64,000 bases of DNA from an uncultured bacterium (lineage in GTDB: Bacteria; Hydrothermota; Tepidihabitantia; B3-TA06; CAYQJV01). The position numbers and the translations under genes are program-made. Shown here in pieces: positions 7,239 through 61,253 of this stretch. The notes under the pieces are model-generated. The model did no database searches. It was given only the letters and a program-made list of their open reading frames with translations, and was not told the origin of the DNA. Each line of letters starts with the position of its first letter. Position 1 is the first letter of the stretch. The stretch is taken from positions 13,941-77,940 of the forward strand of contig CAYQJV010000003.1 of the NCBI GenBank assembly GCA_964417925.1, in the 5' to 3' direction.

Positions 7239-7240
7239 GC

Positions 7241-7951: not shown

Positions 7952-8068
7952 GTTACCTCCTTTCTTTTTTAATTTTATTTAACAAAAATAAAAAGTCAAA
8001 GTTAAGAAGAAGGTATGAAATTTTCTTGACAAATTAAAGTTTTTGATTAAATTTTATAAATGCAAAAC

Positions 8069-8144
<76 letters not shown>

Positions 8145-8172
8145 TTTTGTTTTATTTTTTTAATTCACCCCC

Positions 8173-9274: not shown

Positions 9275-10110
9275 TGTATAAATTTATTCCCCTTTTTGCT
9301 CTTTTATCAAGAATTTTAAGAAGAAAAGTAGGAGATTTTATTGTAAAGGCAATAGGAGTTATAGCTTGGCTTTTTTGTCCGAGAATGCGCAATGTAGTGA
9401 TAAAAAATCTATCCTATATAACAGATAAAGAGGTCAAAAAGAAGTCCTTTAAAGTTATCATAAACTATTTTACTGTGTTAAAAGATTTTTTTGATGTATG
9501 GTGGAGAAAACCAGAGGATATAATAAAGGATGTAGAAACACATGGAGAGGAAAACCTGTGGAGAGCTGTTAAAGAGAACAATGGAGCAGTAATAGTTACC
9601 TATCATATGGGGAATTACGAACTTTCTGCAATATACCTTACTTTGAGAGGTTTTCCTATAACCTCAGTTGTGGAGAAAGTTTCTTCTCCTGTTCATTATA
9701 CGATGTACAATAAACTAAGAACAAAGTTTGGTACAGAGCTTATAAGTACCGCTGAAACTGCAAGGATAGTGAATGCTGTGAAAAGGAAAAGAGTTCTTGC
9801 CCTAATCGCAGATAGAGATATAACAGGAACAGGGATTGTGGTAAACTTTTTTAAGGGAAAGAGAAAATTTCCTATCGGACCTGCATATCTTTCATTAAGA
9901 TTCAACATTCCTGTAATCACAGGATACTTTGTATTGGGAGGTAAAAAAAGATACATAGGATTCATAGACAAAAAAATTGAGTTTAAGCCCTCTGGAAATT
10001 TTAAAAAGGATGTAAAAAGATTGACTTTACTCATTGAGAAAAAAATGAACGGTTATCTTGAAAAGTTCCCTGAGCAGTGGTTTGTTTTTCAGGATGAATG
10101 GATGAACTGA
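9274..10110 (+). CDS. Lipid A biosynthesis acyltransferase, LpxL/HtrB family
   Basis: HX4-acidic acyltransferase motif YHMGNYE, and the overall LpxL-like length and architecture. This implies an LPS-containing outer membrane. Confidence 0.65.
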   Translation: MYKFIPLFALLSRILRRKVGDFIVKAIGVIAWLFCPRMRNVVIKNLSYITDKEVKKKSFKVIINYFTVLKDFFDVWWRKPEDIIKDVETHGEENLWRAVKENNGAVIVTYHMGNYELSAIYLTLRGFPITSVVEKVSSPVHYTMYNKLRTKFGTELISTAETARIVNAVKRKRVLALIADRDITGTGIVVNFFKGKRKFPIGPAYLSLRFNIPVITGYFVLGGKKRYIGFIDKKIEFKPSGNFKKDVKRLTLLIEKKMNGYLEKFPEQWFVFQDEWMN

Positions 10111-20005: not shown

Positions 20006-20033
20006 TTGACATTCATAATATTCTACATACAAT
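20006..20033 (+). promoter_or_regulatory. Sigma70-like promoter TTGACA-16-TACAAT, -10 ends 6 nt before folD ATG (leaderless-type)
   Basis: TTGACA at 20006-20011, TACAAT at 20028-20033, ATG at 20040. Confidence 0.4.
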
Positions 20034-20039
20034 TTTGGG

Positions 20040-20900
20040 ATGGAAACTTTAATCCTTGATGGAAGAAAGGCTTCTGAGGAAATAAGGATGGAACTTGTGA
20101 GGGAGGTGAAGGAGTTAAATAAAAAGGGAAAAACTCCGAAACTCGTGTTTATTACAGTAGGGGATAATCCAGCATCAAAAAGTTATGTAAGGGCAAAAGA
20201 AAGGGCTTGTGTAAAAGTTGGTATTGTTACAGAAAATAAAGAGTTTAAAGAAGATGTTGAGACAAAAGAGGTGGTAGACAAAATTAAAGAGTTGAATGAA
20301 AATGATGAGGTGGATGGGATAGTGGTACAGCTTCCTCTTCCTAAGAAGATCGATAAGGAACAGGTTTTAAATGCAATAAGTATAAATAAAGATGTTGATT
20401 GCTTAAATCCTCTAAATCTTGGCTATCTTATGATTAAAGAACCCATTTTTTATCCTAATACCCCAATGGCAATAATTGAACTTTTAAAATTTTATGGAAT
20501 AAAAATTGAAGGAAGTTACGTGGTGATCCTTGGTAGAGGTAAGACTGTAGGAGTTCCGCTTGTAAATATCTTACTAAAGAAAGGTCCTTATGGAAATGCT
20601 ACTGTTACGGTATGCCATACAAAAACCAGGAATTTAAAGGATATTACATCAAGTGCAGATATTCTTGTTTCTGCAATTGGTGTACCTGGTTTTGTAAAAG
20701 GTGATCTTATAAAGGAAAATGCAGTAATCGTAGATGTAGGGATAAATGTGATTGAAGGGAAGATTGTTGGAGATGTAGATGCTAACTCTGTAATAGGTAA
20801 AGCAAAAGCTCTTTCTCCAGTTCCGGGTGGAGTAGGGCCAATGACGGTGACGATGTTGTTAAAAAATGTGATAAAGGCTGCAAAGAGGAATGTTGCTTGA
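20040..20900 (+). CDS. folD: Bifunctional methylene-THF dehydrogenase / methenyl-THF cyclohydrolase
   Basis: ILDGRKASEEIR...LVFITVGDNPASKSYVRAK...GRGKTVGVP...PVPGGVGPMTV. Confidence 0.9.
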   Translation: METLILDGRKASEEIRMELVREVKELNKKGKTPKLVFITVGDNPASKSYVRAKERACVKVGIVTENKEFKEDVETKEVVDKIKELNENDEVDGIVVQLPLPKKIDKEQVLNAISINKDVDCLNPLNLGYLMIKEPIFYPNTPMAIIELLKFYGIKIEGSYVVILGRGKTVGVPLVNILLKKGPYGNATVTVCHTKTRNLKDITSSADILVSAIGVPGFVKGDLIKENAVIVDVGINVIEGKIVGDVDANSVIGKAKALSPVPGGVGPMTVTMLLKNVIKAAKRNVA

Positions 20901-21750: not shown

Positions 21751-23615
21751 GTATTCTTGAGAGGATAAATTCTCCTGCAGATTTAAAAAAATTGAAACTT
21801 GAAGAGCTTGAAAAACTTACCGGAGAGATAAGGAAAAGAATAATAGAGGTAACCGCAAAAAATGGAGGGCATGTAGCACCGAATCTTGGGGTGGTTGAAC
21901 TTACAATTGCATTACACTATGTGTTTAATGCGCCGCAAGACAAAATAATATGGGATGTAGGGCATCAGTGTTATACCCATAAACTTTTGACTGGCCGAAG
22001 GAAGGCTTTTGAAACTATAAGAAGAAAGGGAGGAATTTCAGGATTTCCCAAAAGAGAGGAGAGTGAATACGATGTTTTTGGAACAGGACATGCAGGAACA
22101 TCATTATCTGCTGCTTATGGAGTTGCAGTGGCACGGGATTTACTTAATGAGAACTACCGGGTAATTGCAGTAATAGGAGATGGTTCTTTGATTTCAGGAA
22201 TGGCACTTGAAGCATTAAACCATATAGGAGCTTCAGGAAAGGATATAATGATAATTCTTAATGACAATGGAATGTCCATTGCAAAAAACCCTGGAGCTAT
22301 TGCTCTTTACCTAAACAGAATAATAACCATGCCTTTTTATAAGAGATTAAGAGCTAAGGTATGGAATTTACTTGGTAAACTTCCTGCAGAAAAAAGGGAT
22401 AGAGCAAGGAGAGTCGCAAGAAAGATAGAGAAGAGAATGAAAGGATTACTTATTCCTGGGGTATGGTTTGAGGAGCTTGGTTTTCATTATTTTGGTCCTC
22501 TTGATGGACATGATTTAAAAGGACTTATATCCTTCTTTAAGAGAATTGAGGACATTCATGGTCCTTTATTGATACATGTGTTGACAAAGAAGGGATATGG
22601 ATTTGAAATTGCCCAGGAGAATCCTGAACTCTTCCATGGAGTTGGTCCTTTTGATTTGAAGTCTTTTGAAATAATAAAGAAGGGTAGTAAAAAGAGTTAT
22701 TCTTCTTTCTTTGGAGAGACTCTTGTTGAATTTGCAGAAAAAGATAAAAGGATAGTTACAATTACTGCTGGAATGTGTCTTGGCACAGGGCTTACGAAGT
22801 TTAGAGAAAGATTTCCCCAAAGGTTCTTTGATATGGGGATAACTGAGGAACACTGTGCTACCTTTGCAGCAGGACTTACCTTGAGGGGTTTGAAGCCGGT
22901 TTTTGCTATTTATTCTACATTTTTACAGAGAGCTTTTGACCAGGTGATACATGATATTGCATTGCAGAAACTTCCGGTTATTTTCTGTATAGATAGAGCA
23001 GGCATTGTAGGAGAGGATGGTCCAACTCATCATGGAACATTTGATATTTCATACTTAAGACTCATACCCAACATAGTGGTTTCTGCTCCAAAAGATGAAG
23101 ATGAATTAAAAGACCTTTTATATACTGCTTTAAACTATGATAAAGGACCTTTTGCATTGAGATATCCAAGAAGTTCTGTAGTCGGAGTTAAAGTAAAAAA
23201 GAGCCCCCAAAAAATTGAGATAGGCAAATGGGAAGTTCTGAAAAAAGGAAGAGATGTGTGTATTCTTGCTGTTGGATCAATGGTATATCCATCTCTTGAA
23301 GCAGCAGAGATTTTGAAAAGATGTGGCATCTCTGCTCAGGTGGTGAATGCAAGATTTATAAAGCCTCTGGATGAGGGAATGCTTGAGGTGATGGCGAGAA
23401 GATTTAAAAAATTGGTAACGGTTGAAGAAAATACCTTAGAAGGTGGTTTTGGAAGCGCAGTATTGGAATTTCTTGAGAAAAAGAAAATAAAGAAGGAGGT
23501 CTTAAGGATAGGTATACCCGATAAATTTATAGAGCATGGTTCAAGGAGTGAGTTACTTTCAGAAATTGGTTTAACAAAGGAGGGTATATCGGAAAAGATT
23601 AGAATGTTTTTATGA
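21747..23615 (+). CDS. dxs: 1-deoxy-D-xylulose-5-phosphate synthase
   Basis: TPP-binding region GHAGTSLSAA...IGDGSLISGMALEALNH, and the transketolase-like middle and C-terminal domains. 622 aa. Confidence 0.9.
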   Translation: MSILERINSPADLKKLKLEELEKLTGEIRKRIIEVTAKNGGHVAPNLGVVELTIALHYVFNAPQDKIIWDVGHQCYTHKLLTGRRKAFETIRRKGGISGFPKREESEYDVFGTGHAGTSLSAAYGVAVARDLLNENYRVIAVIGDGSLISGMALEALNHIGASGKDIMIILNDNGMSIAKNPGAIALYLNRIITMPFYKRLRAKVWNLLGKLPAEKRDRARRVARKIEKRMKGLLIPGVWFEELGFHYFGPLDGHDLKGLISFFKRIEDIHGPLLIHVLTKKGYGFEIAQENPELFHGVGPFDLKSFEIIKKGSKKSYSSFFGETLVEFAEKDKRIVTITAGMCLGTGLTKFRERFPQRFFDMGITEEHCATFAAGLTLRGLKPVFAIYSTFLQRAFDQVIHDIALQKLPVIFCIDRAGIVGEDGPTHHGTFDISYLRLIPNIVVSAPKDEDELKDLLYTALNYDKGPFALRYPRSSVVGVKVKKSPQKIEIGKWEVLKKGRDVCILAVGSMVYPSLEAAEILKRCGISAQVVNARFIKPLDEGMLEVMARRFKKLVTVEENTLEGGFGSAVLEFLEKKKIKKEVLRIGIPDKFIEHGSRSELLSEIGLTKEGISEKIRMFL

Positions 23616-26600
23616 TAAATCTATTCCTTTTATTTTTTATTACGCCGAATTTTTACTCTTACTTGTCTAAGGAGGTAAATATCAGCTATGACTATGGTAT
23701 CGTATTTGAAGAAAAGTGGATTGACTCGGTCTTTCTTGGTATAGAAAGTGTAAAGACCCTGTCTTCCTATCTTGCCCAAAAAACAAGAGAATCCATGGTA
23801 AAGAAGTTTCTATCCCAAACAAAGGAGAGGTTAAAAAAGGAGTCCCTTGGATCCTTGGTTATGGAAGGACTTATCCCTAAGATAGAGATACCGGGTTTTG
23901 AAGAAGAAACTTCTATAGATATCTCCGGATCCGATCAGATCACTGTGGGTATGGGAAGTACTAAATATGCAGAAGGGCAATCTGTATCAATTGAACCGGA
24001 AATGAAGCAGGATATAAAAGTAAAGGTACTTGGAACAATAGCAAGAAAGACCCAGGTAGAGATGGACTACAGTTCTCAGAGGGAGGTGCAGGCGGAAAAT
24101 ACAATAAGAATAACATATCAGGGGGATGAAGATGAGGTGACTGAATATATAAAGGCGGGAGATATATCTTTAACAATGCCAACCACTGTTATGACCGGAG
24201 GACTCCCCACCCATAAAGGACTTTTTGGATTCAGTGGTAAATGGAGGTTTGGCCCTTTAACTCTTTATGCAGTGGCTTCTAAGGAGGAGGCTACCTCTAC
24301 GACTCAAGAGTTTACTCAAGGAATAAATGTAGAGGAAAAAAAGGATTCAATATACGATTATCAATACGAAAAGGAAAGGTTTTTTACCATTCTCAATGAT
24401 TCTATAAAAAAATATCTGGGTGATGATACAATTATTACCGGAGTAGGTGTTTATGTATTTGATTACACAACCCCTGATAGGATTACAAAACCTGCTGTTG
24501 CAACTCCTTATGGAAATCTCTATCCTGAATATAAACCTTACGATTCCAGAGAAGAAATAACAAAAGGTAACTTCTATCCTCTTGTACGAAACGAAGAGTT
24601 TTACTTTCATGAGGGGACAGGAATAATTGAACTTACAAAATCCTTTTATGGAAACTACATTCTCGCGGTTGCATGTACTACCTCTACTGGAAGAAAACTT
24701 TTCAGCTATAATGGAGATACTTTAATCCTTCTTCTTGTATGGCCAGAGAATCCAGATTCATCTCTTATTACGTGGAAAAACGAACTAAGAAATGTTTATT
24801 CTGTTGGAGATGTTAACATTAAAAACTTAAAGATAACCATAGTGAGAATATCTCCAGGAGATGCTACAGAACTTGAGACCGAAGGTCCTGCTAAAGGAAA
24901 ATCTTTTGCAGAAATTCTTGGAATAGATGCTGACGGAGATGGAATGGTGGATGCAAAGTATATGGACCCCTCCAGGGGTCTTGTATGGTTTCCATATAGA
25001 GAACCGTTTAACCATTCTGACCTCTCGGTAAGAGATTCTTCTATTTATCTTACTCGGTATGTTTCGGATCCAAAATATAAAATAATTTTTTCCTATACAC
25101 GACCTCTACAGTATCAACTTCCGGTAGGAATAAAGGAAGGAACAGTAAGAATTTGGGTAAATGGTGAAGAACTTTCTGAGGATGAATTCAGTGTAAATTA
25201 TGCTACAGGAGTGGTTACCATAAAAAGACCTGTGCCAGCAGGTGCTGAGATAAAGATAACTGCTGAGCAGACTCCTTTCTTTATAAACCCCAGAGAAGGA
25301 TCAATAGCAGGAATAAGAGCAGAGACAAAACTTACAGAAGATGCTACGATTGGATGGACCTTTTTATATAGAAATGAGAAGGAAAGGGGAGTAATAAGAC
25401 CGACCATAGGATCAGAACCGTATAGTAGAGCAATAACTGCTCTTGATCTTAAAATAGATAAAGAACTCGGGGGAATTACAGAGTTTCTTGATAGACTCCC
25501 TCTTATAAGTACTGATGAACCATCTACGATAAATTTTGAGACCGATGTAGGTATTTCAATGCCAAATCCCAACACTATGGGGACAGCCTACATTGAAGAT
25601 TTTGAAGGAATTGAGGAGAGCGATGAGCTGGTAATAACTAAGAGATGGTATCCTCCAAGTATTCCTGTTTCCAAGGACTCTGCTATAGAGACATATTCAA
25701 GGAGAAGACCACAGATAGATGTGGTGACCATAAATAAAAGGGATGTGTTTGGTGAGGTTACAGGTGATGTGTTCCAGAATCTTCAGGATGTCTTAAGAAT
25801 TGTATATACTCCAGAAGATAGTACACGGTGGAGTGGAATAATGACTGCTCTTGTCGGAGGAGAGGTTTTCGATATCACAGATAAAGATAACTTGGAGTTT
25901 ATATTTAAAACAGATGCAAAAAAAGGTAGAATCTATATAGATTTTGGTTCAGATATAGATGAAGATATGCTTCGGCTGGATAAAGATGGAAATATAAGAG
26001 GATTGGATACCTTGGATACAGAGGATAAAAATGGAAATATGATGTTAAATTTAGGGGAAGATACAGGACTGGATGGTATTGCTGGAAAGGATGGTGAGGA
26101 GGTTGCAGGAGATGATGGAAATGATGATTATGATGAGAAAACAAATCTCATGGGTACTGAGGGGAATGGAATGCTTGATACCGAAGATATTGACCAGGAC
26201 TGGGGTTGGAATGGTGGGAGTTTTACAAGAAACGATTATTATGAGGTAATGATAGATCTGGAAAAAGAAAGTGAGTATATTGAGGAACTTGAAAATGGAT
26301 GGAAGCTTCTCAGGATACCTCTTTCTGATTCATCTGCTTATAAAAAATTCGGGAGTCCCCAGGCTAAACTTATTAATGAATTCAGAGTGTGGTTTGAAGG
26401 AATGGAGGGAGTTGACACGCTTTATATTTACTCTTTAAAGTTCCAAGGCACGGTGTGGAAAGGCCTATCGGTGTATAAAGAAGACACCACCTCTGAAGAG
26501 CCGGATACCACAGAGAAGGTCTCTATTGCCCCAGTGAATAGAGAAATTGACCCTGAGTATACTTCTCCTTTTAAGCTAAGAAAAGACATAAGTGGACAGT

Positions 26601-29053
26601 ATGAAATAGAAAATGCACTTGAACTTAAGTATGAAAATATAAAACCTGGACATGGAGTCAAAATATATCGCTACAGTACAGATCCTTTGGATCTTAGAGG
26701 CTATAAAAAGATTTCTATCTACATACATGGGGATGAAGAAAGCGCTCTTTTTTTCCTTAAAATAGGTACAGATTCGTTAAACTATTATGAATATAGAAAC
26801 AAAATCAACGCAGGCAAAAAAGTTGAATATGGAGAAGGGTGGAGAGAATTTGAAATTGATCTTGCCGGGTTTGCCTCAATAAAGAAAGATTCTATACAAT
26901 CCGATACTCTCAAATTCTATGGGGATCCAACTCTGGCTAATATTAGGTACCTATCCCTTGGAATTATAAATGGAGGAGAAGGAGAAATATCGGGTAAGGT
27001 ATGGTTTAACGATATTAGGGTGAAGGATCCGTGGAGGGAAAAAGGAGTATCTTTCACAGGAAGGTTGAAATTTAAACTCGCAGATGTGGGATTTACCACT
27101 GTTAACTTTTCAAGAAGTGATCCTAACTTTGTTTCCTTTTCAGATCCAACAGGAGTTAAGGCAGGTGGACTTACAAACAATCTTTCCGTGTTTACTCAAG
27201 CAAATATTGATAAACTTTTTCCAAAAAAGGCAGGTTTTAAAATACCATTGGGGATTACTTATACACGAAGGACCTCCACTCCCAAATTTTCACCTTATGT
27301 AAGTGACTATCGAATAGGTAAAAAAGAGGCAGAAGAATTTACTGAAACGAGTGATAATAAAGGATTTAAAATTTCTTTTTCAAAAAACAAAAAGTCTAAA
27401 AATAAATTTTTAAACTACACTATAGATGCATTAAACTTAAGTACAGAGGCTTCATTAAATCATAACTTAAGGAATGCTACTAAGAATCTTGATTCTACAA
27501 GAAGTTTTAATACTAAAGCATCCTACCGAATATCTCCTCAGTTGTTCATGAAGGTTAAAGGTCGGAAGATATACTTTATACCGAATAGTATATCCCTTAC
27601 TCTATCCCAAAACTATTCCTACTCCAGGAGTTGGTCAAGAGTTTCTCCTGATGAGTCTTTTGGTAAGCCAATTTATGCAGATGAAAGAAAGACCTTTGTT
27701 ATTTCTTCTTCGGCAACTCACTCCTTTATAGAAAGATTTCTTTCTTTTAGTGCTGTATTTTCAAATACAAGAGATTTAAAGGAACCAAATTATGTAAGAG
27801 GAATCAATATAGGAAGGGATGCAGGCAAAAATTTGAGACTTACGTACAGTATTTCAGGAGTGAACTTAAAAGATTTTGGGAGGCCTGGTGTTAGTGTTCA
27901 AACAGACTATCAAGAGAATCATTCTATAGATATACAGATAGACACTTTTGATACGCGAAATCTCAATAACTCCTTTAATCTAAATGCCTCCTGGCCTGGT
28001 ATAAATACAGGCGGAATTATTGAAAAAATTAAGTTTATTTTTCCTCAAAAGGATACAGTAGAAAAGAAAGGATCTCCTCGATGGTTGATTCATACCTTTG
28101 CTTCAATTTTGAAAAAAGTTAGACCTTTGGAGGTTTCCTATGGGTACTCTAAAAGTTCTTCCTATCAGTACTACCTTGGGGTTCCATCTACAAGATACAT
28201 ACTTGGGTTTGAAGATAGTATTCCTCTGTATGGAGAAGACAGCACAGTTCAGTATTTAGGTACGGGTTCAAGAAGAAGAGAGCATCGGCTATCTCTGGAG
28301 ACAGGGGCTACTGTAGGAGATATTAATCTAAATTTGAGAGCGAATAAAAATGCTTCCTTCACATTGAACTTTGGGCAGACGAACTTTTCTTATTCATATA
28401 TTCTTCCTTCTGTATCTCTGAATATTTACAACCTTTCAAAGCACATCAAGAAATTTCTTCCAACACTGCAGAATGCATCTTTAAACTCTTCTTTTGAAAG
28501 GAAAAAGACCTATAATGGAACCATAGAGTATCAAGATAATGGAGGGATGATCGCGGATACAAATGCAGTAACTGAAGAGATGAATTTCTCACCCCTTGTG
28601 TCTCTCTCAACCTATTGGAAGAGGAAGGTTACCCTCACTGCCCAGGTTACCCATCAAGATACAAGAACCATAAGGATTTTTGGAGAGCTTGGAACTACTG
28701 TTACACGTTACAAAAAAACCGATTATGAATTCTCTGCTGGATACTTATTTAGTGCTCCTTCAGGGCTTAAAATACCTTGGCTGAGAAATGTGAGGTTTAA
28801 AAATGACCTTAATCTCAATGCAACCTTTATGGTTTCAGAAATTAAAAATTCAAAGTATGATGAGTCCACAGGTGAAGAAGATGTGTTGATAGATGATATA
28901 GAAAAACAGCTTACTGTATCTGCATCTTACAACTTTTCAAATACCTTTACAGGAGGACTTAATTTTATTTACAAATCAAAACATTCTCGGGTGAATCCGA
29001 GGTATGATTATTCTCAGTATCGTCTTGATGTGGTAATTACTATAAAATTCTGA
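23612..29053 (+). CDS. Giant (1813 aa) secreted outer-membrane beta-barrel protein, SprA/Sov-like (candidate T9SS translocon)
   Basis: N-terminal signal sequence. Extreme length. The C-terminal third is rich in alternating S/T/N/Y/F beta-strand-like segments and ends in ...VITIKF with a terminal Phe (OMP signature). An internal Asp/Gly-rich segment is present. The context has a T9SS CTD cargo and a PorX-like regulator. The family assignment (SprA) is tentative. Confidence 0.4.
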   Translation: MINLFLLFFITPNFYSYLSKEVNISYDYGIVFEEKWIDSVFLGIESVKTLSSYLAQKTRESMVKKFLSQTKERLKKESLGSLVMEGLIPKIEIPGFEEETSIDISGSDQITVGMGSTKYAEGQSVSIEPEMKQDIKVKVLGTIARKTQVEMDYSSQREVQAENTIRITYQGDEDEVTEYIKAGDISLTMPTTVMTGGLPTHKGLFGFSGKWRFGPLTLYAVASKEEATSTTQEFTQGINVEEKKDSIYDYQYEKERFFTILNDSIKKYLGDDTIITGVGVYVFDYTTPDRITKPAVATPYGNLYPEYKPYDSREEITKGNFYPLVRNEEFYFHEGTGIIELTKSFYGNYILAVACTTSTGRKLFSYNGDTLILLLVWPENPDSSLITWKNELRNVYSVGDVNIKNLKITIVRISPGDATELETEGPAKGKSFAEILGIDADGDGMVDAKYMDPSRGLVWFPYREPFNHSDLSVRDSSIYLTRYVSDPKYKIIFSYTRPLQYQLPVGIKEGTVRIWVNGEELSEDEFSVNYATGVVTIKRPVPAGAEIKITAEQTPFFINPREGSIAGIRAETKLTEDATIGWTFLYRNEKERGVIRPTIGSEPYSRAITALDLKIDKELGGITEFLDRLPLISTDEPSTINFETDVGISMPNPNTMGTAYIEDFEGIEESDELVITKRWYPPSIPVSKDSAIETYSRRRPQIDVVTINKRDVFGEVTGDVFQNLQDVLRIVYTPEDSTRWSGIMTALVGGEVFDITDKDNLEFIFKTDAKKGRIYIDFGSDIDEDMLRLDKDGNIRGLDTLDTEDKNGNMMLNLGEDTGLDGIAGKDGEEVAGDDGNDDYDEKTNLMGTEGNGMLDTEDIDQDWGWNGGSFTRNDYYEVMIDLEKESEYIEELENGWKLLRIPLSDSSAYKKFGSPQAKLINEFRVWFEGMEGVDTLYIYSLKFQGTVWKGLSVYKEDTTSEEPDTTEKVSIAPVNREIDPEYTSPFKLRKDISGQYEIENALELKYENIKPGHGVKIYRYSTDPLDLRGYKKISIYIHGDEESALFFLKIGTDSLNYYEYRNKINAGKKVEYGEGWREFEIDLAGFASIKKDSIQSDTLKFYGDPTLANIRYLSLGIINGGEGEISGKVWFNDIRVKDPWREKGVSFTGRLKFKLADVGFTTVNFSRSDPNFVSFSDPTGVKAGGLTNNLSVFTQANIDKLFPKKAGFKIPLGITYTRRTSTPKFSPYVSDYRIGKKEAEEFTETSDNKGFKISFSKNKKSKNKFLNYTIDALNLSTEASLNHNLRNATKNLDSTRSFNTKASYRISPQLFMKVKGRKIYFIPNSISLTLSQNYSYSRSWSRVSPDESFGKPIYADERKTFVISSSATHSFIERFLSFSAVFSNTRDLKEPNYVRGINIGRDAGKNLRLTYSISGVNLKDFGRPGVSVQTDYQENHSIDIQIDTFDTRNLNNSFNLNASWPGINTGGIIEKIKFIFPQKDTVEKKGSPRWLIHTFASILKKVRPLEVSYGYSKSSSYQYYLGVPSTRYILGFEDSIPLYGEDSTVQYLGTGSRRREHRLSLETGATVGDINLNLRANKNASFTLNFGQTNFSYSYILPSVSLNIYNLSKHIKKFLPTLQNASLNSSFERKKTYNGTIEYQDNGGMIADTNAVTEEMNFSPLVSLSTYWKRKVTLTAQVTHQDTRTIRIFGELGTTVTRYKKTDYEFSAGYLFSAPSGLKIPWLRNVRFKNDLNLNATFMVSEIKNSKYDESTGEEDVLIDDIEKQLTVSASYNFSNTFTGGLNFIYKSKHSRVNPRYDYSQYRLDVVITIKF

Positions 29054-43467: not shown

Positions 43468-43495
43468 TTGACTTTTTGAAATATTCTAAGATAAT
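43468..43495 (+). promoter_or_regulatory. Sigma70-like promoter TTGACT-16-GATAAT, -10 ends 7 nt before ATG 43503 (leaderless-type)
   Basis: TTGACT at 43468-43473, GATAAT at 43490-43495. Confidence 0.35.
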
Positions 43496-43502
43496 TTAAA
43501 TA

Positions 43503-43979
43503 ATGAAAAAAATAGTTTTTTCTGGATTTGTGGCGTTTATTTTCTGTTGTGGATATTCCACTCGGGCTTTACTGCCTCCTTATTTAAAATCCATCTATAT
43601 TTCTCAGCCTGTAAATAATACTACAAAACCTATGTTGGAGGAAGTACTCAAACGAAATCTTGAGATGAGTTTTATTAAAGATGGAAATCTAAAGGTAGTG
43701 GGATCTATTGATGAAGCTTCTCTCATATGTGAGACCACAATAAAAAATTATTCAAAGTCTCCTGTGGAGTATACTGTAGATCAATTTGTACGACACTGGA
43801 GAATTACCATTACAGTACATGTGAAATGTACTGACCAAATAAAAAACAGAATTTTTTGGGAAGGAGATGTTTCTTTTTGGGAAGATATTCAACGAATAGA
43901 GGATGAGGAAAAAGCTATAGATACTCTTTTTAAAAGGATTTCACAGGAGATTGTAGTAAAAACAGTTACCAATTGGTAG
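43503..43979 (+). CDS. Small lipoprotein (LptE-like size and architecture?)
   Basis: Signal peptide with ...FIFCCGYS lipobox-like Cys, followed by a ~130 aa beta-rich domain. The LptE assignment is speculative. Confidence 0.4.
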   Translation: MKKIVFSGFVAFIFCCGYSTRALLPPYLKSIYISQPVNNTTKPMLEEVLKRNLEMSFIKDGNLKVVGSIDEASLICETTIKNYSKSPVEYTVDQFVRHWRITITVHVKCTDQIKNRIFWEGDVSFWEDIQRIEDEEKAIDTLFKRISQEIVVKTVTNW

Positions 43980-43980
43980 A

Positions 43981-45282
43981 TTGATAGTTTCGGTTGAGAA
44001 GATTGTATACGGAGGCTATGCTCTTGCAAGACACAAGGGGAAAGTAATTTTCATAAAGAACGTACTTCCAGAGGAAAAGGTAAAAATAAAAATAGTCAAA
44101 GAAAAAAAGGACCATGCTTTTGCCGAGGTGGTGGATATAATAGAATCCTCCGTACATAGACAAGATCCAGAATGTCAACATTTTGGATTGTGTGGTGGAT
44201 GTGATTTTCAGTATGTATCGTATGAATATGAGATGTTTTTAAAAAAAGAGATGCTTGAGGAACTTTTAAAAAGGGAAAAGATAGATGTTGAGATTAAGGA
44301 AGTTGTGGTTTCAAAATCTCATAAAGGATATAGAAATAAAAGTGAACTTCCTGTAAAGGGAGGTAAAAGAGTAAGAATAGGTTTTTTTGAAAGTAAAAGT
44401 CATAGAGTTGTAAATATTAAAGAGTGTACAGTGCATCCAAGATTTTTTAACGAGATTATAGAGGTGTTGAGAGGGAAAATAGAAAGGACAAAGGTATCCA
44501 TATACGATGAGAATACAGGAAGAGGAGATTTAAGGTACATCATACTGCGAACAAACCCTGCAAAAGATGTACTTATTGGATTTGTTTCTAAGTCCGGTAG
44601 TCTTTCCCATGAGGCCTGGAAAGGAGTAGAAAAGAGATTTAAAAATATCAAAGGAATTCTGGTAAATTACAATCCATTTTCTGGTTCAAAAATAACCGGC
44701 GATAGGATAAAAAATGTTTATGGTAGAGATTTCTTGAAATACCGGATCAATGGGAAGACATTTATAGTAAGTTTTCTTTCGTTCTTTCAGACAAATTCCT
44801 ATCAATTGGAGAATATGGTGGGGCTAATAAAAGATCTTCTATCCCCTGAAAAAAACGATAGAATAGGTGATTTATATTCAGGGGTTGGATTGTTTGGAAT
44901 ATCCTTGGCAGAGGATGTGAAGCATGTGGTTTTGATAGAGCAAGCATCAAGCTCAGTAGAGGATGCAAGAAAAAATATTGAAATTAATCAGTTGGTAAAT
45001 ATAGAGGTAGTAAAAGGAGATGCATCCTGGATAAGAGAGTTTGAAGGTATAAATAAACTGATAGTGGACCCCCCAAGGAAAGGGATGTCTGATGAGGTGA
45101 TAAAAGCAATACTGCATTTAAGCCCTGAGAGGATAGCTTATGTATCGTGTAATCCAGCCACTTTTGCAAGAGATATTAAAAAACTGGAAGAAAAATACAG
45201 GCTTCAATATGTTGTTCTTATAGATATGTTTCCCAGAACATACCATATGGAGGTTGTTGGTTTACTTTTAAAAAATGATTAA
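43981..45282 (+). CDS. rlmD: 23S rRNA (uracil-C5)-methyltransferase RlmD/RumA family (TRAM + 4Fe-4S + MTase)
   Basis: TRAM segment IVYGGYALARHKGKVIFIKNVLPEEKVKIKI. Cys cluster CQHFGLCGGCDFQ. SAM motif DLYSGVGLFG. Catalytic DPPRKG and C-terminal Cys (VSCNP). Confidence 0.8.
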   Translation: MIVSVEKIVYGGYALARHKGKVIFIKNVLPEEKVKIKIVKEKKDHAFAEVVDIIESSVHRQDPECQHFGLCGGCDFQYVSYEYEMFLKKEMLEELLKREKIDVEIKEVVVSKSHKGYRNKSELPVKGGKRVRIGFFESKSHRVVNIKECTVHPRFFNEIIEVLRGKIERTKVSIYDENTGRGDLRYIILRTNPAKDVLIGFVSKSGSLSHEAWKGVEKRFKNIKGILVNYNPFSGSKITGDRIKNVYGRDFLKYRINGKTFIVSFLSFFQTNSYQLENMVGLIKDLLSPEKNDRIGDLYSGVGLFGISLAEDVKHVVLIEQASSSVEDARKNIEINQLVNIEVVKGDASWIREFEGINKLIVDPPRKGMSDEVIKAILHLSPERIAYVSCNPATFARDIKKLEEKYRLQYVVLIDMFPRTYHMEVVGLLLKND

Positions 45283-46684
45283 GATAAAAAATTCAAAGAT
45301 ATGGGGTGAAAAAGGCTATGAACATACAAGTATTATTATTGAACACGAAAGGATAATATCTGTAGATGTAGATATAAAAGAAGCAGATTTTGAAAATGTA
45401 TACGTACTGCCCGGTTTTATAGATTCACATATTCATCTTGTGGAATACGGAGAGACTTTTGTATTCCCATCTCTTGACGAGGTAGAATCAAAAGAGCATG
45501 CGATGGAACTTCTTTTTGAGGGCCTTGGGATCGCAAGATATACAGGCTTTTTATACGCCTTTGGAATAGATCCAGAGAAAGCAAAGATAACTTCTGAAGA
45601 TTTGGATAAAGTATCAAAAAAGGTTCCTGTAATTGTTCGAAGGATAGATGGACATTCTGCATATCTCAACCATAAGGCAATGGAATTTTTAAAAGTAGTG
45701 CCTCAGCCTGTATATAAAGGAGAGGAAAACAAGTATATAGTAGAGAAAGTAGAAAGAGCTGTACCTTGGGAAGTAAAAGAAGAAGGGATACTTAAAGCAC
45801 AGAATAAATTGTTAAAATACGGTATAACCCATGTGGTTTCAATGACCCAAGAATATGATTGCGAAGGTCTTTTGAAATTAAAGGATAAACTCATAATTGA
45901 CGTGACGGTGTTTTGTCAAACTGAAGATGTGAAGATGGTAAAACGGCTTGGACTACCAAGAATAGGAGGATGTTTACTCATAGACGGATCTTTTGGTTCC
46001 CATACTGCAGCAATTTCATTTCCCTATAACGATAAAAAACAAACAAAAGGAGTGCTCTACTACACTGAGGAAGAGTTAAAGAGACTCGTTAAAAAATTCG
46101 CTCAAAACAATTTACAGATGACATTCCATGCTATAGGAGATAAAGCAATCTCTATGTTACTATGTGCCTATGAAGAGGTAATAGAGAGAGAAAATACACA
46201 GAGGCATAGAATAGAGCATGCTGAGCTCTTGAACAATCATATGATAGAAAAAATCAAAGAACTTGATATAATTATATCAGCTCAGCCAGGATTTGAGTAT
46301 TATTGGGGAGGTAAAGGTAATCTCTACGAAAAAAGATTAGGGATGAGGTATATTTTAACAAATCCTTTCAAGGAGATTTTGGAAAAAAATATCAAATTGT
46401 GCTTTGGGTCGGATGCTCCTATTACTGATCCAGCTCCTTTCTATGTATTTCAAGGAAGTATACGTCATCCAAATTCAATTCACAGGATAAGATTTGAACA
46501 AGCAATAAGATGCTACACAATTAACGGAGCATATGCAGTGTTTGAAGAAAAGAATAAAGGAAGTATAGAAAAAGGAAAAATTGCAGATATAATTCTCTTT
46601 GATAAGGATCCATCCAAGAATTACAACCTTAACCCCTGTGCAGTGATCAAAGAAGGTAGAATAGTTGCTCAATATTGTGATTAG
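45275..46684 (+). CDS. Metal-dependent amidohydrolase (amidohydrolase-3 / COG1574-like)
   Basis: N-terminal metal-binding DSHIHL, plus internal HAIGD and C-terminal GSDAP motifs typical of the amidohydrolase superfamily. Confidence 0.65.
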   Translation: MIKIKNSKIWGEKGYEHTSIIIEHERIISVDVDIKEADFENVYVLPGFIDSHIHLVEYGETFVFPSLDEVESKEHAMELLFEGLGIARYTGFLYAFGIDPEKAKITSEDLDKVSKKVPVIVRRIDGHSAYLNHKAMEFLKVVPQPVYKGEENKYIVEKVERAVPWEVKEEGILKAQNKLLKYGITHVVSMTQEYDCEGLLKLKDKLIIDVTVFCQTEDVKMVKRLGLPRIGGCLLIDGSFGSHTAAISFPYNDKKQTKGVLYYTEEELKRLVKKFAQNNLQMTFHAIGDKAISMLLCAYEEVIERENTQRHRIEHAELLNNHMIEKIKELDIIISAQPGFEYYWGGKGNLYEKRLGMRYILTNPFKEILEKNIKLCFGSDAPITDPAPFYVFQGSIRHPNSIHRIRFEQAIRCYTINGAYAVFEEKNKGSIEKGKIADIILFDKDPSKNYNLNPCAVIKEGRIVAQYCD

Positions 46685-46744: not shown

Positions 46745-46772
46745 TTGACAAAACTTGAAAATTGGGTAATAT
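46745..46772 (+). promoter_or_regulatory. Sigma70-like promoter TTGACA-16-TAATAT, -10 ends 6 nt before ATG 46779 (leaderless-type)
   Basis: TTGACA at 46745-46750, TAATAT at 46767-46772. Confidence 0.4.
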
Positions 46773-46778
46773 TTTTAG

Positions 46779-47963
46779 ATGGAGTTGTTTAAAAAGTGTG
46801 AAGATTTTTATCCTGTTGTGGAGAGGGCTTACAGGGAGAATTATTATCCTTATTTTATTCCAATAGATTCCCAGCCGGACCACAATGTTGTGATTTCTGG
46901 TAAGAGGATGATAATGCTTGGTTCAAATAACTATCTTGGCCTTACTTCTGATCCCAGAGTAAAAAAAGCAGCGATAGAGGCTGTAGAGAAGTACGGTACA
47001 GGTTGTACAGGCTCCAGATTTCTGAATGGTACGCTTGATATCCATGTGAAGTTGGAAAGGGAGCTTGCTGAGTTTTTTGAAAAGGATGATTGTATTGTTT
47101 TTTCCACTGGATATCAGGCAAATCTTGGAGTAATTTCTGCTCTTGTTCAGAAAGGCGATTATGTAATTACTGACAAATTGGATCATGCCTCAATAATTGA
47201 TGGATGTAGGTTATCTTTTGGAGAAATGGTGAGGTTTGTCCATAATGATATGGAGAGTCTTGAGAATGTATTGAAGAAGCTTCCTAAGGAAGCAGGAAAG
47301 TTGATAGTGGTAGATGGGATATTTTCAATGGATGGTGATATTGCAAAACTTCCTGAAATAGTTTCTCTTGCAAAAAAATATGGAGCAAGGGTGATGGTGG
47401 ATGATGCCCATGCTGTTGGAGTTCTGGGTGAGAGAGGGGCAGGCACAGCAGAGTATTTCGGTATGCTTTCTCAGGTAGATTTAATAATGGGAACATTCAG
47501 TAAATCATTTGCATCTCTTGGGGGGTTTGTGGTGGGGGAGAAAAAGGTAATAACCTATATAAGGCATCATGCAAGATCCCTTATATTTTCTGCGAGTATG
47601 CCTCCTTCTGCAGTAGCAACTGCGAGAAAGGCACTTGAGATAATAAAAAATGAGCCTGAAAGGAGGAAAAAGTTGTGGAAAAATACAGAGAAGATGCTCA
47701 AGGGATTTAAAAGCATTGGTTTTGATACAGGAACTGCAGAAACACCGGTTATCCCTATAATAATAGGGGATGATATGCTTACCATAAGGTTTTGGAAAGA
47801 ACTTTTTGAAAATGGAGTTTTTGTAAATCCAGTTCTTCCTCCTGCAGTACCGCCTAAGAAATCTCTTTTAAGAACCAGTTATATGGCAACCCATGAGGAG
47901 GAGGAACTGGATGAGGCACTTTCAATTTTTGAGAAAATTGGTAAAAAACTGGGGATAGTATGA
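46779..47963 (+). CDS. PLP-dependent alpha-oxoamine synthase (serine palmitoyltransferase / Kbl / BioF family)
   Basis: LGSNNYLGL. The PLP-lysine segment [14 protein letters not shown] and [15 protein letters not shown] are present. No bioA/bioD or tdh gene nearby. It is translationally coupled (ATGA) to a GNAT-like acyltransferase. Confidence 0.8.
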
Positions 47964-49069
47964 TAGAGATAGAAGAGGTTAAAGAAAAAGATATAACTAA
48001 GTTTATAAAGTTTGCGTGGAAGATTTATAAAAATGATAAAAATTGGGTACCTCCGTTGATTTCAGAGCAAAAAGAAATCTTATCTTTGAAGAAGAATCCG
48101 TTTTTTGAACATGCAGAGGGGATTTACTTTATGGCTTATAAAAATGGAGAACCTGTAGGTAGAATTGCAGGTTTTGTAGACAGAAATCATATTGAATTTC
48201 ATCAAGAAAATGCAGGATTCTTTGGATTTTTTGAATGTATCAATGATTTTGAAGTTGCCCGCGTATTGTTTGATTCGGTGAAGAATTGGCTTAAGGGAAA
48301 GGGAATGGAAATAATGAGAGGTCCTATGAATCCTTCTACAAACGATGAGTGTGCTTTCTTACTTGAGGGATATGATTCTCCACCTGTTATAATGATGACC
48401 TATAATCCTCCGTATTATCATGATCTTGTAAAACGTTATGGGATGAGAAAGGCAAAGGATCTGTATGCATATTACCACTGGACACACAGACCGTTACCTG
48501 AGAAGTTAATGAGAATAGTGGAGAAGTTGAAGAATAAAAAGGAAATTCAGGTAAGGCCTATCACACCTGAAACACTGGAAGAAGATATAAAAAAGATCAA
48601 AATCATATATAACTCAGCTTGGGCAAAGAACTGGGGATTTGTTCCTATGACAGAGCATGAGTTTGATGTAATGGTGGAGAAATTGAAACAGATATATATT
48701 CCAGAACTTGCATTACTTGCAGAAATAGATGGAGAACCTGCAGGTGTTAGTGTTACCATTCCTGATTATAATCAGGTGCTTATACATTTGAATGGAAGAT
48801 TAACTCCTTGGGCTATTATTAAGTTCTTTTATTATAAGAGAAAGGTAGATCAATTAAGACTTTTAATATTAGGGGTAAGGCCTGAATTTCAAAAAACAGG
48901 GGTGGATGCATTGTTATATTATCATACCTTTGAAAATGCAAAAAAGTTGGGTTACAAAGGAGGAGAAATTTCATGGATTCTTGAAGATAACTATATGATC
49001 ATAAGACCTATTGAGATGTTTGGGGCAAAGTTATATAAGAAGTATAGAATATATGAGATTGATATCTAA
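47960..49069 (+). CDS. Tandem-GNAT-fold N-acyltransferase (candidate ceramide/aminolipid N-acyltransferase)
   Basis: The C-terminal half has GNAT motif [18 protein letters not shown]. The N-terminal half has a GNAT-like beta-alpha pattern. The start overlaps the stop of the AOS gene. Confidence 0.45.
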
Positions 49070-50803
49070 TCAACAAAAACAGGATTTTTGAATTAAAAAC
49101 CATATATAAGATATTAAAAAAGAAAGTACGAGGTTCCCATCAATTAAAGTTTCAAATAAAACATCTCTATAGAATATAGAGAATTTTTCTTTTATTGTAA
49201 ATACAAGAATGTAAAGAAAAAGATTAAAGGAAAGGAAGATAGAAAGGGAGGGAGTAAAATTTTTAAAATAAGCTAAAGTCATTATCCCTAAGGATAGAGA
49301 TAAAACTACTACTCCAAGAATTTTTGTTTTAGTTTCTCCGATAAGTACAGGGATACTTTCAATTCCGGTTACTAAATCTCCTTGTAAGTCTCTTAAACTG
49401 TATATAAGAGATCTGCAAAAAGCCATTGTAAATGCAAATAAAAATACTACTAATGTATTTGGGGAGATACTTTTTCCAGTAGAAAACATGTTTAAAAAAA
49501 CAAGCATCAATGCCCATGCAGTAGCAAGAAATATGTCTTTGGAGCCTGGAATATCTGCGAAACTTTTGTATTTAAAAGGAAGGAATTTGAATCTATACAA
49601 TATTCCAAGAAGGGAAAGCAAAAGCACTGCTCCAAAGGTCTTCCAAGAAAGAAACCATGAGACTGCAAGGGAAGATGAGACACCAAGAATACCAAGGATG
49701 ATGAGCAATTTTCTGTGTTTTCTATAAAAATCACTTCTTGCTGGGTAGTTTATATCAAGTGTCTTTGGATCTGTGAGATGATTTAAAAGATGCATTGCAA
49801 ATATGTAGGAAGCTGCTATCCATTCAAAAGCAAGAGATGGCTCTATTCCTAAGAGTCTTGAGCATGCATAGCATAGAGAGGCAGCACTAAAAGCTACGTA
49901 TAAGTGACTTCTTATAAAAAATCTCCATAACCATAGGATAAATTTTTTAATGCTTTTTCCCTGAACTTGGAGCTCTTCAAGTTTATAAACTACTCTTTGT
50001 ATAAGCCAATCCGGAGTTGATGCTCCAGCAGTTACTCCAATTTTTTTAAATTTTTTTATATCTGTTGGGAGTTCTTTTTCTCTTTCAATGTGGAAGGCGA
50101 TTTTCCCTTCTTCTCTTATTATTTCTGCAAGTCTTCTTGTATTTGCACTATTTTTCCCTCCTACCACAATTACTGCATCACATATTTTTGCAAGTTTTCT
50201 TGCTTCCTCCTGTCTTTCATCGGTTTCTTCACAGATTGTGTCATAAAGTTCAACATTTTTTCTACTTTTTACAAGTTTCTTTATTTTTTCAAATCTTCTA
50301 CGATTTTGCGTAGTTTGAACTACTATACATAATTTTTTTTCTTTTTTCTTTTTTATAATTTTTTCAAATTCTTTTTCATTCTCCGCAATCTCTGCTCTAT
50401 TTTTAGCATATCCCATCAATCCCTTTACTTCTGAATGAGTCTTATCCCCTATTATTATTACTTCTTTTCCTTCTTTGATACATTTTTTTACAATCATCTG
50501 AACTCTATACACTTTTGGACAGGTAGCATCAATTATTTTTACCTTTTTTCTTTGAAGTTTTTTTCTTTCTTCAGGAGAAATGCCATGAGCTCTTATTATT
50601 ACTCTTGATAAAGGAGGGATTTCTTCTATATTTTTTATTGTTTTTACGCCCCTCTGTTTTAAGAATTCTACCATTTGGGGATTATGTATGAGGTCTCCAT
50701 AAGAGACTATTTTTTCGTTCTTTATTAATTCTTTAAAAACAATCTGAATCGCTCTTCTTACACCGAAACAAAACCCTTTCTTTTTTGCTATTATTATCTG
50801 CAA
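49070..50803 (-). CDS. ispH: Fusion protein: 4-hydroxy-3-methylbut-2-enyl diphosphate reductase (IspH/LytB) + UbiA-superfamily membrane prenyltransferase
   Basis: The N-terminal ~285 aa is a complete IspH with the three cluster Cys (GFCFGV, DATCPKV, DTICEETDERQ), VVQTTQ and GVTAGASTP. The C-terminal ~290 aa is polytopic, with the first Asp-rich motif variant NHLTDPKTLD and a canonical second motif YSLRDLQGDLVTGIESIPVLIG. It is a single uninterrupted ORF. Confidence 0.7.
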   Translation of the reverse strand: MQIIIAKKKGFCFGVRRAIQIVFKELIKNEKIVSYGDLIHNPQMVEFLKQRGVKTIKNIEEIPPLSRVIIRAHGISPEERKKLQRKKVKIIDATCPKVYRVQMIVKKCIKEGKEVIIIGDKTHSEVKGLMGYAKNRAEIAENEKEFEKIIKKKKEKKLCIVVQTTQNRRRFEKIKKLVKSRKNVELYDTICEETDERQEEARKLAKICDAVIVVGGKNSANTRRLAEIIREEGKIAFHIEREKELPTDIKKFKKIGVTAGASTPDWLIQRVVYKLEELQVQGKSIKKFILWLWRFFIRSHLYVAFSAASLCYACSRLLGIEPSLAFEWIAASYIFAMHLLNHLTDPKTLDINYPARSDFYRKHRKLLIILGILGVSSSLAVSWFLSWKTFGAVLLLSLLGILYRFKFLPFKYKSFADIPGSKDIFLATAWALMLVFLNMFSTGKSISPNTLVVFLFAFTMAFCRSLIYSLRDLQGDLVTGIESIPVLIGETKTKILGVVVLSLSLGIMTLAYFKNFTPSLSIFLSFNLFLYILVFTIKEKFSIFYRDVLFETLIDGNLVLSFLISYIWFLIQKSCFC

Positions 50804-52238: not shown

Positions 52239-52961
52239 TTAATCACCCATTTCAAAAAACTTGGTGTAAAGAGTTCTTAAATTTAAAGCATTTTTCTCCT
52301 CTTCAAGAGCTTTTTTAAACAACTGAAGTTTGTGAATAATATCTTCTTTAAAGATGTGTTCCTTATTATTTAATTCATTGATAGCAAAAGATACCCCTGA
52401 AATCCACTGTTTCTTTACCTCTTCATTCTTTAACAGTACTTCAAAAGTACTGTCACTTAACATCCAGTTTTTGTTTATCTTTTCTAATACATAAAAATGA
52501 GGTAAGAAAGGAGATGCTATACCATAACACCCAAGGTTATCATGTCTCCAAGTGAGAATAATGTATCTGTTTTTATATATTCCTGAGTATCCATCAACAT
52601 TGAAATCCATGTATTCTCCATCCAAATATATTACAAGTCTTCCATAGGAATGGATTCCTGTTCCACTGCATACAGTTTTTACTATCACTATATTTTTAAG
52701 TCTCCCATTTACAAGAAGTTTATCTGTTAACATTTGAGGAAATAGATTTTCCATGATCTCTCCGTATCCATCAGTAAAAATGGTTATTTTTTCTCCTTCA
52801 TCTTCAATTATCAGGGAATATTCAAATGTTTTAAAGAACTCATCTTCTTCCATATGAAGGATCTCCATCTTTACAGTTTCAGGGATTCCATCTTCATCAA
52901 TATCAGTTGATACCTGCCATCCAGCAATAGATATGAAAACGTATATTATCATAGTTATCAT
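52239..52961 (-). CDS. Hypothetical protein with N-terminal signal anchor
   Basis: MITMIIYVFISIAGW hydrophobic start. No recognised motif. It sits directly upstream of purF and the ispH-ubiA fusion in the same operon. Confidence 0.3.
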   Translation of the reverse strand: MITMIIYVFISIAGWQVSTDIDEDGIPETVKMEILHMEEDEFFKTFEYSLIIEDEGEKITIFTDGYGEIMENLFPQMLTDKLLVNGRLKNIVIVKTVCSGTGIHSYGRLVIYLDGEYMDFNVDGYSGIYKNRYIILTWRHDNLGCYGIASPFLPHFYVLEKINKNWMLSDSTFEVLLKNEEVKKQWISGVSFAINELNNKEHIFKEDIIHKLQLFKKALEEEKNALNLRTLYTKFFEMGD

Positions 52962-52966
52962 AAATA

Positions 52967-52995
52967 ATATTACGCAGGTTATAATTTAAGTCAAT
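52967..52995 (-). promoter_or_regulatory. Sigma70-like promoter (TTGACT-17-TAATAT on minus strand), -10 ends 5 nt before start codon 52961
   Basis: Plus strand: AGTCAA at 52990-52995 and ATATTA at 52967-52972. Confidence 0.35.
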
Positions 52996-60530: not shown

Positions 60531-61253
60531 TTAAAACCTTTCAAAAATTCTGTCAATATCTTGAATTATCTTTTCATTTTTTTCAAATGCATTTCCTATT
60601 ACTAAGAAATCTGTCCCTGCTTTTATCAGTTTTCCGATTTCCATTATGTCTTTTATTCCTCCACCTACCATTACTTTTACATTAAGTTTTTTCTTTATCC
60701 TTTCTATCATTCTCTCTGGGACCGGTTTTTTAGCACCACTTCCTGCATCAAGATAAACAAGCTTTAAACCTATATAGTATCCTGCAAGAACATGGGCAAA
60801 AAGGATATCTGGTTTATCTCTGGGAATAGGTCGTGTATTACTCATAAACTCTACACTGGTCTGTTTTCCAGATTCAATTAGAAGATAACCTGTAGGAATT
60901 GCTTCAATGCCATAATGATAAATAAGAGGAGCTGCTTTTACCTGTTCTCCTATTAAAAATTCAGGGTTTCTTCCACTTAAAAGAATCATGAATAAAATTG
61001 CATCTGCATATCTGGATACTTGGTGGGACCCTCCTGGGAAGATTATTACAGGTTTATCTGTATTTTCCTTTATCGTTTTTACAAATTCGTCAAATTCAGG
61101 ATTAAGCAGGAGACTTGTGCCTACCAGAATACCAAGTGCTTTGGATTTAGTTATTGTTTTTACCATGTTCTTCAATCTTTTTCTTTCTATTCTATCAGGA
61201 TCAAGCAATACAAAGAAACCAGGTGCCTTTTTTTCTATCTTTTCCCAAACCAT
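60531..61253 (-). CDS. GGGPS/PcrB-family prenyl-glyceryl-phosphate synthase ((hepta/geranylgeranyl)glyceryl phosphate synthase)
   Basis: FVLLDPDR, ILVGTS, YLDAGSG and VMVGGGIKD...FLVIGNAFE align with PcrB/GGGPS hallmarks (FKLDPNK, IIGGS, YLEYSG, YGGGIKD...IVVGNA). Confidence 0.75.
   Translation of the reverse strand: MVWEKIEKKAPGFFVLLDPDRIERKRLKNMVKTITKSKALGILVGTSLLLNPEFDEFVKTIKENTDKPVIIFPGGSHQVSRYADAILFMILLSGRNPEFLIGEQVKAAPLIYHYGIEAIPTGYLLIESGKQTSVEFMSNTRPIPRDKPDILFAHVLAGYYIGLKLVYLDAGSGAKKPVPERMIERIKKKLNVKVMVGGGIKDIMEIGKLIKAGTDFLVIGNAFEKNEKIIQDIDRIFERF

Follow-up and report, generated by a model that had tools for sequence, protein, structure and literature searches.

A probable serine palmitoyltransferase and ceramide synthase gene pair in an uncultured diderm bacterium

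A 64,000-nucleotide stretch of DNA from an uncultured bacterium (assembly GCA_964417925.1, contig CAYQJV010000003.1, positions 13,941 to 77,940; hereafter the window) carries two overlapping genes at 46745–49069 that most probably form an operon for the opening two reactions of the ceramide pathway known from bacteria. The upstream gene, spt, is predicted to encode a serine palmitoyltransferase (Spt) belonging to the alpha-oxoamine synthases (AOS) that depend on pyridoxal 5'-phosphate (PLP), and the downstream gene, bcerS, a GNAT-type acyltransferase of the bacterial ceramide synthase (bCerS) family. The host is read as a diderm member of the Fibrobacterota–Chlorobiota–Bacteroidota (FCB) group, and the closest relatives of both proteins come from metagenome-assembled genomes (MAGs) of candidate division WOR-3. 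The literature already describes the pathway, the two enzyme families and how widely they occur among phyla, and the locus is an ordinary new example of them; what is mildly unusual here is a compact, overlapping and putatively leaderless operon without a linked gene for the reductase CerR, and these are minor variations. The pair and its associated signals are:

46745–46772, + strand: sigma-70-like promoter candidate, −35 TTGACA at 46745–46750, 16-nt spacer, −10 TAATAT at 46767–46772, putatively leaderless
46779–47963, + strand: spt, 394 aa, serine palmitoyltransferase-type PLP-dependent AOS, predicted PLP lysine Lys242
47951–47963, + strand: putative translational coupling site, Shine-Dalgarno-like GGGGA at 47951–47955 within the end of spt and ATGA overlap at 47960–47963
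47960–49069, + strand: bcerS, 369 aa, tandem-GNAT N-acyltransferase, predicted member of the YghO/CC_1154 bacterial ceramide synthase family

The open reading frame listing places the spt stop codon (TGA, 47961–47963) over the bcerS start codon (ATG, 47960–47962), and both frames are exactly as the initial annotation had described them; the translated AOS contains GSNNYLGL and GTFSKS (Lys242). The GGGGA element lies 5–9 nt 5' of the bcerS ATG, and together with the ATGA overlap it makes up what, to judge from the nucleotide sequence, is a classic translational-coupling layout. An identical 4-nt overlap of spt and bcerS is present in the closest relatives (L002, L003, L097 and L098). Downstream, a convergent gene at 49070 has its stop codon directly next to that of bcerS.

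Family assignment of the two enzymes

The first protein is assigned by Pfam to Aminotran_1_2, and its finer placement comes from NCBIfam models, structures, active-site residues and a tree. The top NCBIfam model is SerpalmtaseCFB (NF047600, the Bacteroidota-type Spt equivalog) at 568 bits, followed by NF047599 (the betaproteobacterial-type Spt equivalog) at 448 bits, and the BioF and Kbl models rank below both at 412–422 bits. Among PDB entries the best match is the Spt of Sphingobacterium multivorum (459 bits), ahead of Sphingomonas-type Spt (332–342 bits), a thermostable AOS (~308 bits), Kbl (~273–285 bits), the cysteate acyltransferases SulA/CapB (261–264 bits) and BioF (~212 bits). In this comparison of Spt, Kbl, BioF and CapB, which had been proposed as a check on the initial annotation, Spt therefore scores highest.

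All active-site residues of the S. multivorum enzyme are kept in the HMMER alignment, where the conserved AOS residues are N50, G78, S79, H136, S183, D208, A210, H211, T239, S241 and K242. The PLP residues K242, H136, D208 and H211 correspond to S. multivorum K244, H138, D210 and H213, and the serine-contacting residues N50, G78/S79, S241, T239 and S183 are identical to Asn52, Gly80/Ser81, Ser243, Thr241 and Ser185; these positions bind PLP and L-Ser in the S. multivorum Spt crystal structures (PMC10196870). A single position separates SulA from Spt, being an essential lysine (Lys281) in SulA and alanine in Spt (PMC9304779), and at this position the window protein has Ala272, within an FSAS motif, which is the Spt state.

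A neighbour-joining tree included four reference proteins, namely E. coli Kbl, Bacillus Kbl (its gene next to tdh), E. coli BioF and Alicyclobacillus BioF (its gene next to bioA/bioD). These four references are split from all other AOS proteins in 189 of 200 bootstraps. The window AOS groups with WOR-3 proteins, and these belong to a large clade together with every GNAT-linked AOS protein and a Parabacteroides Spt-like protein; the sister of this clade is formed by the Spts from the Sphingomonas and E. coli clusters. No tdh, bioA, bioB or bioD turns up anywhere in the 64 kb when the open reading frames are annotated with Pfam, which extends the earlier observation that no bioA/bioD or tdh partner is adjacent. 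By these comparisons the AOS is best placed in the Spt clade, apart from Kbl, BioF and SulA; the initial proposal of an Spt-like enzyme is thereby upheld, and a grouping with Kbl or BioF is not what the tree shows.

The second protein is less readily named by standard models. Only weak generic GNAT matches are returned by Pfam, no NCBIfam model matches, and a PDB sequence search gives nothing significant. Its fold is that of a tandem GNAT, in agreement with the two-lobed acyltransferase first proposed. Solved tandem-GNAT structures (MAB_4324, 7Q3A; MshD, 1OZP; clavulanate ORF14, 2WPW) are only 11–12% identical to it; what they acetylate are small molecules, and there is no lipid N-acyltransferase among them. 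The family is large, with more than 8000 matches in a protein search, and relatives 45–58% identical to the window protein occur across Zixibacteria, WOR-3, KSB1, Nitrospirota, Ignavibacteria, Myxococcota, Acidobacteriota and others.

The link to a named family was found by tblastn on annotated plasmid and replicon records, followed by BLASTP. The window protein matches E. coli YghO end to end (residues 1–369) at 36% identity (E 1e-76) and a Sphingomonas parapaucimobilis N-acetyltransferase over its full length at 31% identity (E 7e-67). Both homologues lie in clusters of related content. In Sphingomonas, genes for an NAD(P)H-binding protein, an acyl carrier protein (ACP) and an AOS are followed by lptF, lptG, a desaturase gene and the GNAT gene; in E. 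coli PN43, the neighbours of yghO are a fatty acyl-AMP ligase, an epimerase-family reductase, an ACP, an AOS and an lptF/lptG pair. Published work identifies CC_1154, yghO (ECD_02850) and Swit_3908 as orthologous acyl-CoA N-acyltransferases required for dihydroceramide and reports that the Spt of E. coli B produces 3-oxo-sphinganine (PMC9386255), and CC_1154 has been named bCerS and is required for dihydroceramide formation (PMC11324152). The bCerS assignment runs through the YghO/Swit_3908 orthology given in these two papers; because the window protein is a full-length homologue of YghO and of the Sphingomonas protein, it is classified here as a predicted member of the bCerS/YghO family, as the suggestion of a GNAT-type ceramide synthase had anticipated. 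In a neighbour-joining tree its clade draws on many phyla and has the proteobacterial YghO/bCerS branch as its sister, and a Bacteroides homologue is more distant. No match to a Pfam model or fold of the OlsB/GlsB or FemAB families was found.

The same comparison bears on E. coli K-12, where yghO (L096, NC_000913.3, 3129043–3131340) is annotated as a 'putative DNA-binding transcriptional regulator' and is a bCerS-family tandem GNAT. A DNA-binding regulator role of this type was considered for the window protein and rejected on the basis of its tandem-GNAT fold. K-12 carries IS5 where PN43 (L087) has the genes for the acyl-AMP ligase, reductase, ACP, Spt and LptF/G paralogues. The K-12 annotation thus appears to be wrong, and the gene appears to be the remnant of a sphingolipid cluster.

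Conservation of the pair and competing readings

If family membership is a guide to activity, Spt would use PLP at Lys242 to join L-serine to a long-chain acyl thioester (acyl-CoA or acyl-ACP), yielding 3-ketodihydrosphingosine and CO2. The bCerS enzyme would then attach a second acyl chain, drawn from acyl-CoA, to the amine of the long-chain base, giving 3-oxo-dihydroceramide. How would the pathway proceed from there? Reduction of the 3-keto group to give dihydroceramide would fall to a CerR-type short-chain dehydrogenase/reductase (SDR) encoded outside the window, or to another enzyme.

Comparative evidence for this scheme comes from 84 related loci, of which 80 were taken from one genome per species and 4 were added via exact protein identity. 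Among them are loci from Zixibacteria, WOR-3, KSB1, Nitrospirota, Ignavibacteria, Bacteroidota, Myxococcota, Acidobacteriota, Gemmatimonadota and Rubrobacter. In 51 of the 84 the gene immediately upstream of the GNAT gene, on the same strand, encodes an Spt-type AOS, and in 44 of the 84 there is an SDR/epimerase-family gene no more than 3.5 kb away. The SDR of the related loci is taken to be CerR-like because it is homologous to the genes that hold the reductase position in the clusters of Sphingomonas and E. coli (31–32% identity) and of Rubrobacter (31–37% over all three). The proposal that the pair belongs to a sphingolipid module of Spt plus GNAT gains from this pairing, which is kept in a wide range of phyla and frequently comes with a CerR-type reductase.

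Several observations weigh against the assignment of the pair to ceramide synthesis. The AOS scores below the cut-offs of both Spt equivalogs (568 versus 640 bits for NF047600; 448 versus 500 bits for NF047599), and the GNAT protein is just 29–36% identical to the proteobacterial and Bacteroidales members of its family. In the cited literature, genetic and biochemical support is limited to the Caulobacter enzyme, and YghO is considered an orthologue on sequence and gene-cluster grounds. The 64-kb window holds no CerR-like SDR by tblastn or by Pfam on called open reading frames of at least about 90 aa, and it has neither an acyl-ACP synthetase gene nor a dedicated ACP gene; in the nearest WOR-3 loci, too, the pair stands without CerR, ACP or acyl-ACP synthetase genes nearby. 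Because the window has no CerR gene, the pathway as visible in it stops at 3-oxo-ceramide. By analogy with Bacteroidota, whose spt, bCerS and CerR genes are described as unlinked (PMC11334938), the reductase may be encoded elsewhere in the genome; otherwise it would be missing.

Some of these points lend weight to a reading in which the enzyme types are as assigned and the product differs, such that the AOS prefers alanine, glycine or another amino acid and the pair, lacking CerR, makes 1-deoxy-ceramide-like or 3-oxo N-acyl aminoketone lipids. The missing CerR homologue (in the window and in the flanks of the WOR-3 relatives) and the sub-threshold Spt score would both fit, bacterial Spt is reported to accept Ala and Gly at low efficiency (PMC10196870), and according to supplementary material of PMC11334938 the same enzymes yield 1-deoxyceramides from alanine. 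However, every serine-contacting residue of S. multivorum Spt is kept, including Asn50, Gly78/Ser79 and Ser241, and a reductase gene may sit beyond the 64 kb as in the unlinked Bacteroidota arrangement (PMC11334938), and we regard a different product as unlikely. A housekeeping Kbl or BioF beside an unrelated acetyltransferase is far less probable still. It draws on the residual 412–422 bits to those models, including a bioF cut-off that is narrowly missed (418 versus 426 bits), and on the generic GNAT signals that are all Pfam sees in the second protein. The Kbl cut-offs are not reached (412 versus 460 and 348 versus 493 bits), and what decides against this reading is that tdh and bioA/B/D are absent from the window, that the references with cognate neighbours form the outgroup at 189 of 200 bootstraps, that the GNAT protein is homologous to YghO/bCerS over its full length, and that the AOS–GNAT pairing is kept in 51 of 84 loci.

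The initial annotation had also entertained a sulfonolipid (capnine-type) or N-acyl amino-acid lipid, with the AOS as a cysteate acyltransferase or the GNAT protein as an OlsB/GlsB-type enzyme. An FCB-group host, as marked by a 1813-aa SprA protein of the type IX secretion system, would suit such lipids, as would the fact that the closest Spt relatives are from Bacteroidota and WOR-3. The alanine at the SulA Lys281 position and the lack of any OlsB/GlsB-type Pfam match run counter to this suggestion, which we consider the least credible of all and do not retain. Both the Kbl/BioF and the sulfonolipid/aminolipid readings are effectively excluded, and synthesis of a ceramide backbone is the reading that we prefer.

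Some of the related loci are of interest in their own right. Two myxobacterial MAGs (L040, Archangiaceae, 6388–9680; L063, Myxococcaceae, 8001–11348) carry two bCerS paralogues each, 43–50% identical to the window GNAT protein, that flank a CerR-like SDR downstream of spt. Plasmid 1 of Rubrobacter radiotolerans (L090, 14230–19822) has, in series, an AOS, a bCerS homologue (41%), an NAD(P) oxidoreductase and an LTA-synthase-family gene; by gene content, the ceramide-type cluster on this plasmid of a Gram-positive extremophile is complete. A mobilizable plasmid of the Bacillus group, from Priestia megaterium (L091, 25090–26304), encodes an AOS that shares 54% identity with the window Spt and comes almost as near to it as the Bacteroidales Spts do, with no bCerS neighbour and with an acyltransferase and a methyltransferase nearby.

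Predicted leaderless expression and neighbouring genes

The intergenic region upstream of spt is 94 nt long and contains TTGACA-N16-TAATAT followed, after 6 nt, by the ATG at 46779, with no Shine-Dalgarno motif before it. Taken alone, such a match carries little weight, as the DNA has a GC content of ~35% and a generic sigma-70-like scan of the window returns 35 sites against 30.7 ± 5 expected, which is not above chance. A composite pattern that ties the promoter to a start codon (TTGACW-N16-18-WANWWT-N5-7-ATG) has five occurrences in the window where 0.33 would be expected by chance, and 0 of 100 shuffles reach five. None of the five sites has a Shine-Dalgarno motif:

8026–8062: directly precedes tRNA-Val (8069–8144)
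20006–20042: start of folD at 20040
43468–43505: start of the lptE-like gene at 43503
46745–46781: start of the AOS gene spt at 46779
52959–52994, − strand: start of an unknown gene at 52961, − strand

In four of the five, the pattern finishes at the start codon of the first gene of an operon. Shine-Dalgarno-like motifs are present in about half of the window genes, mostly internal ones. The composite pattern, above chance and mostly at operon-leading starts, points to leaderless mRNAs as a frequent feature of operon heads in the host genome, and a leaderless reading for spt is consistent with this recurring feature. As to the earlier claim that the pair has its own leaderless promoter, the site is there and the composite pattern is above chance, but the sigma-70-like match by itself is not. 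On this model, transcription from the pair's own sigma-70-like promoter would start at or next to the spt ATG to give a leaderless mRNA, and bcerS would be translated by coupling through the ATGA overlap and the internal GGGGA.

The genes around the pair include the following:

9274–10110, + strand: lipid A acyltransferase
23612–29053, + strand: SprA-like type IX secretion protein, 1813 aa
43503–43979, + strand: LptE-like protein
45275–46684: amidohydrolase (Amidohydro_3), 469 aa, overlapping the end of rlmD by 8 nt
49070–50803, − strand: 577-aa fusion protein, IspH/LytB at residues 1–280 (313 bits) and a UbiA-family membrane prenyltransferase at ~300–540
60531–61253, − strand: PcrB-family protein, geranylgeranylglyceryl-phosphate (GGGP) or heptaprenylglyceryl-phosphate synthase

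A functional link between the amidohydrolase and the pair had been raised and finds no backing here. The amidohydrolase gene is placed in the upstream operon because it overlaps rlmD and follows the lptE-like gene, which has its own leaderless-type promoter at 43468, and the promoter-like site of the pair separates it from spt and bcerS. Moreover, an amidohydrolase homologue adjoins the pair in 0 of the 84 related loci, and the neighbours of the pair vary even among close relatives.

The SprA-like, LptE-like and lipid A acyltransferase genes together indicate a diderm, lipopolysaccharide-containing organism of the FCB group; rRNA genes are absent from the window, and tRNA-Val is its only tRNA gene. 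Two of its genes concern isoprenoids. The protein that converges on bcerS is an unusual predicted fusion of the last enzyme of the methylerythritol phosphate pathway with a prenyltransferase, the UbiA part of which gives weak matches to archaeal-type geranylgeranylglycerol-phosphate geranylgeranyltransferase models. Together with the PcrB-family gene, this fusion hints at isoprenoid ether-lipid synthesis in a host that also carries ceramide genes.

Comparison with known ceramide systems

The reference pathway is that of Caulobacter crescentus, with Spt (CC_1162), bCerS (CC_1154/CCNA_01212) and CerR (CC_1164), and equivalent clusters are found in E. coli B/PN43 (spt, acpR, cerR-like, aasR and yghO) and in Sphingomonas. 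Like the Caulobacter system, the window pairs an AOS-type Spt with a GNAT N-acyltransferase of ~370–380 aa. It differs in having no genes for AcpR, AasR, CerR or LptF2/G2 and in that spt and bcerS overlap, whereas they are several genes apart in Caulobacter and Sphingomonas. A CerR gene, missing here, comes with the pair in roughly half of the related loci.

The window Spt belongs to the Bacteroidota/Myxococcota-type subgroup, unlike the Rhodobacteria subgroup that uses acyl-AcpR (PMC9386255). The S. multivorum and Bacteroidales Spts (PDB 3A2B and 8GUH; NF047600) are its best sequence match with a fully kept active site, and identity to proteins of Parabacteroides, Prevotella and Bacteroides is 50–56%. 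The arrangement differs, however, in that the Bacteroidales spt is not adjacent to the bCerS homologue (PMC11334938), and the two genes overlap in the window.

Clustering of Spt, bCerS and CerR has already been used to predict sphingolipid producers in ~40 phyla in a Black Sea study (ISME J 2024, PMC11334938). Our interpretation follows the inference drawn in that study, in which an Spt-clade AOS beside a bCerS homologue marks a potential producer, and the 84 loci reproduce the cross-phylum clustering; WOR-3 and Zixibacteria are not named in the searched portion of its text. A more speculative extension, which we think doubtful, is that the module in the WOR-3-like lineage has been pared down to a leaderless, coupled Spt–bCerS pair in a genome without an orthologous CerR, such that either 3-oxo-ceramide is the end product or a non-homologous reductase acts on it, and that this module might coexist with archaeal-type isoprenoid ether-lipid genes.

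With the pair read as a ceramide-backbone operon, the understanding of the ceramide pathway itself is unchanged by this locus, and an uncultured FCB-group (WOR-3-like) bacterium is added to the likely sphingolipid producers. The YghO/bCerS family, for which there is no NCBIfam model and no specific Pfam model, is recognisable through its conserved pairing with Spt. Used as a marker, this pairing helps both the annotation of such genes and the assignment of environmental ceramides to their producers.

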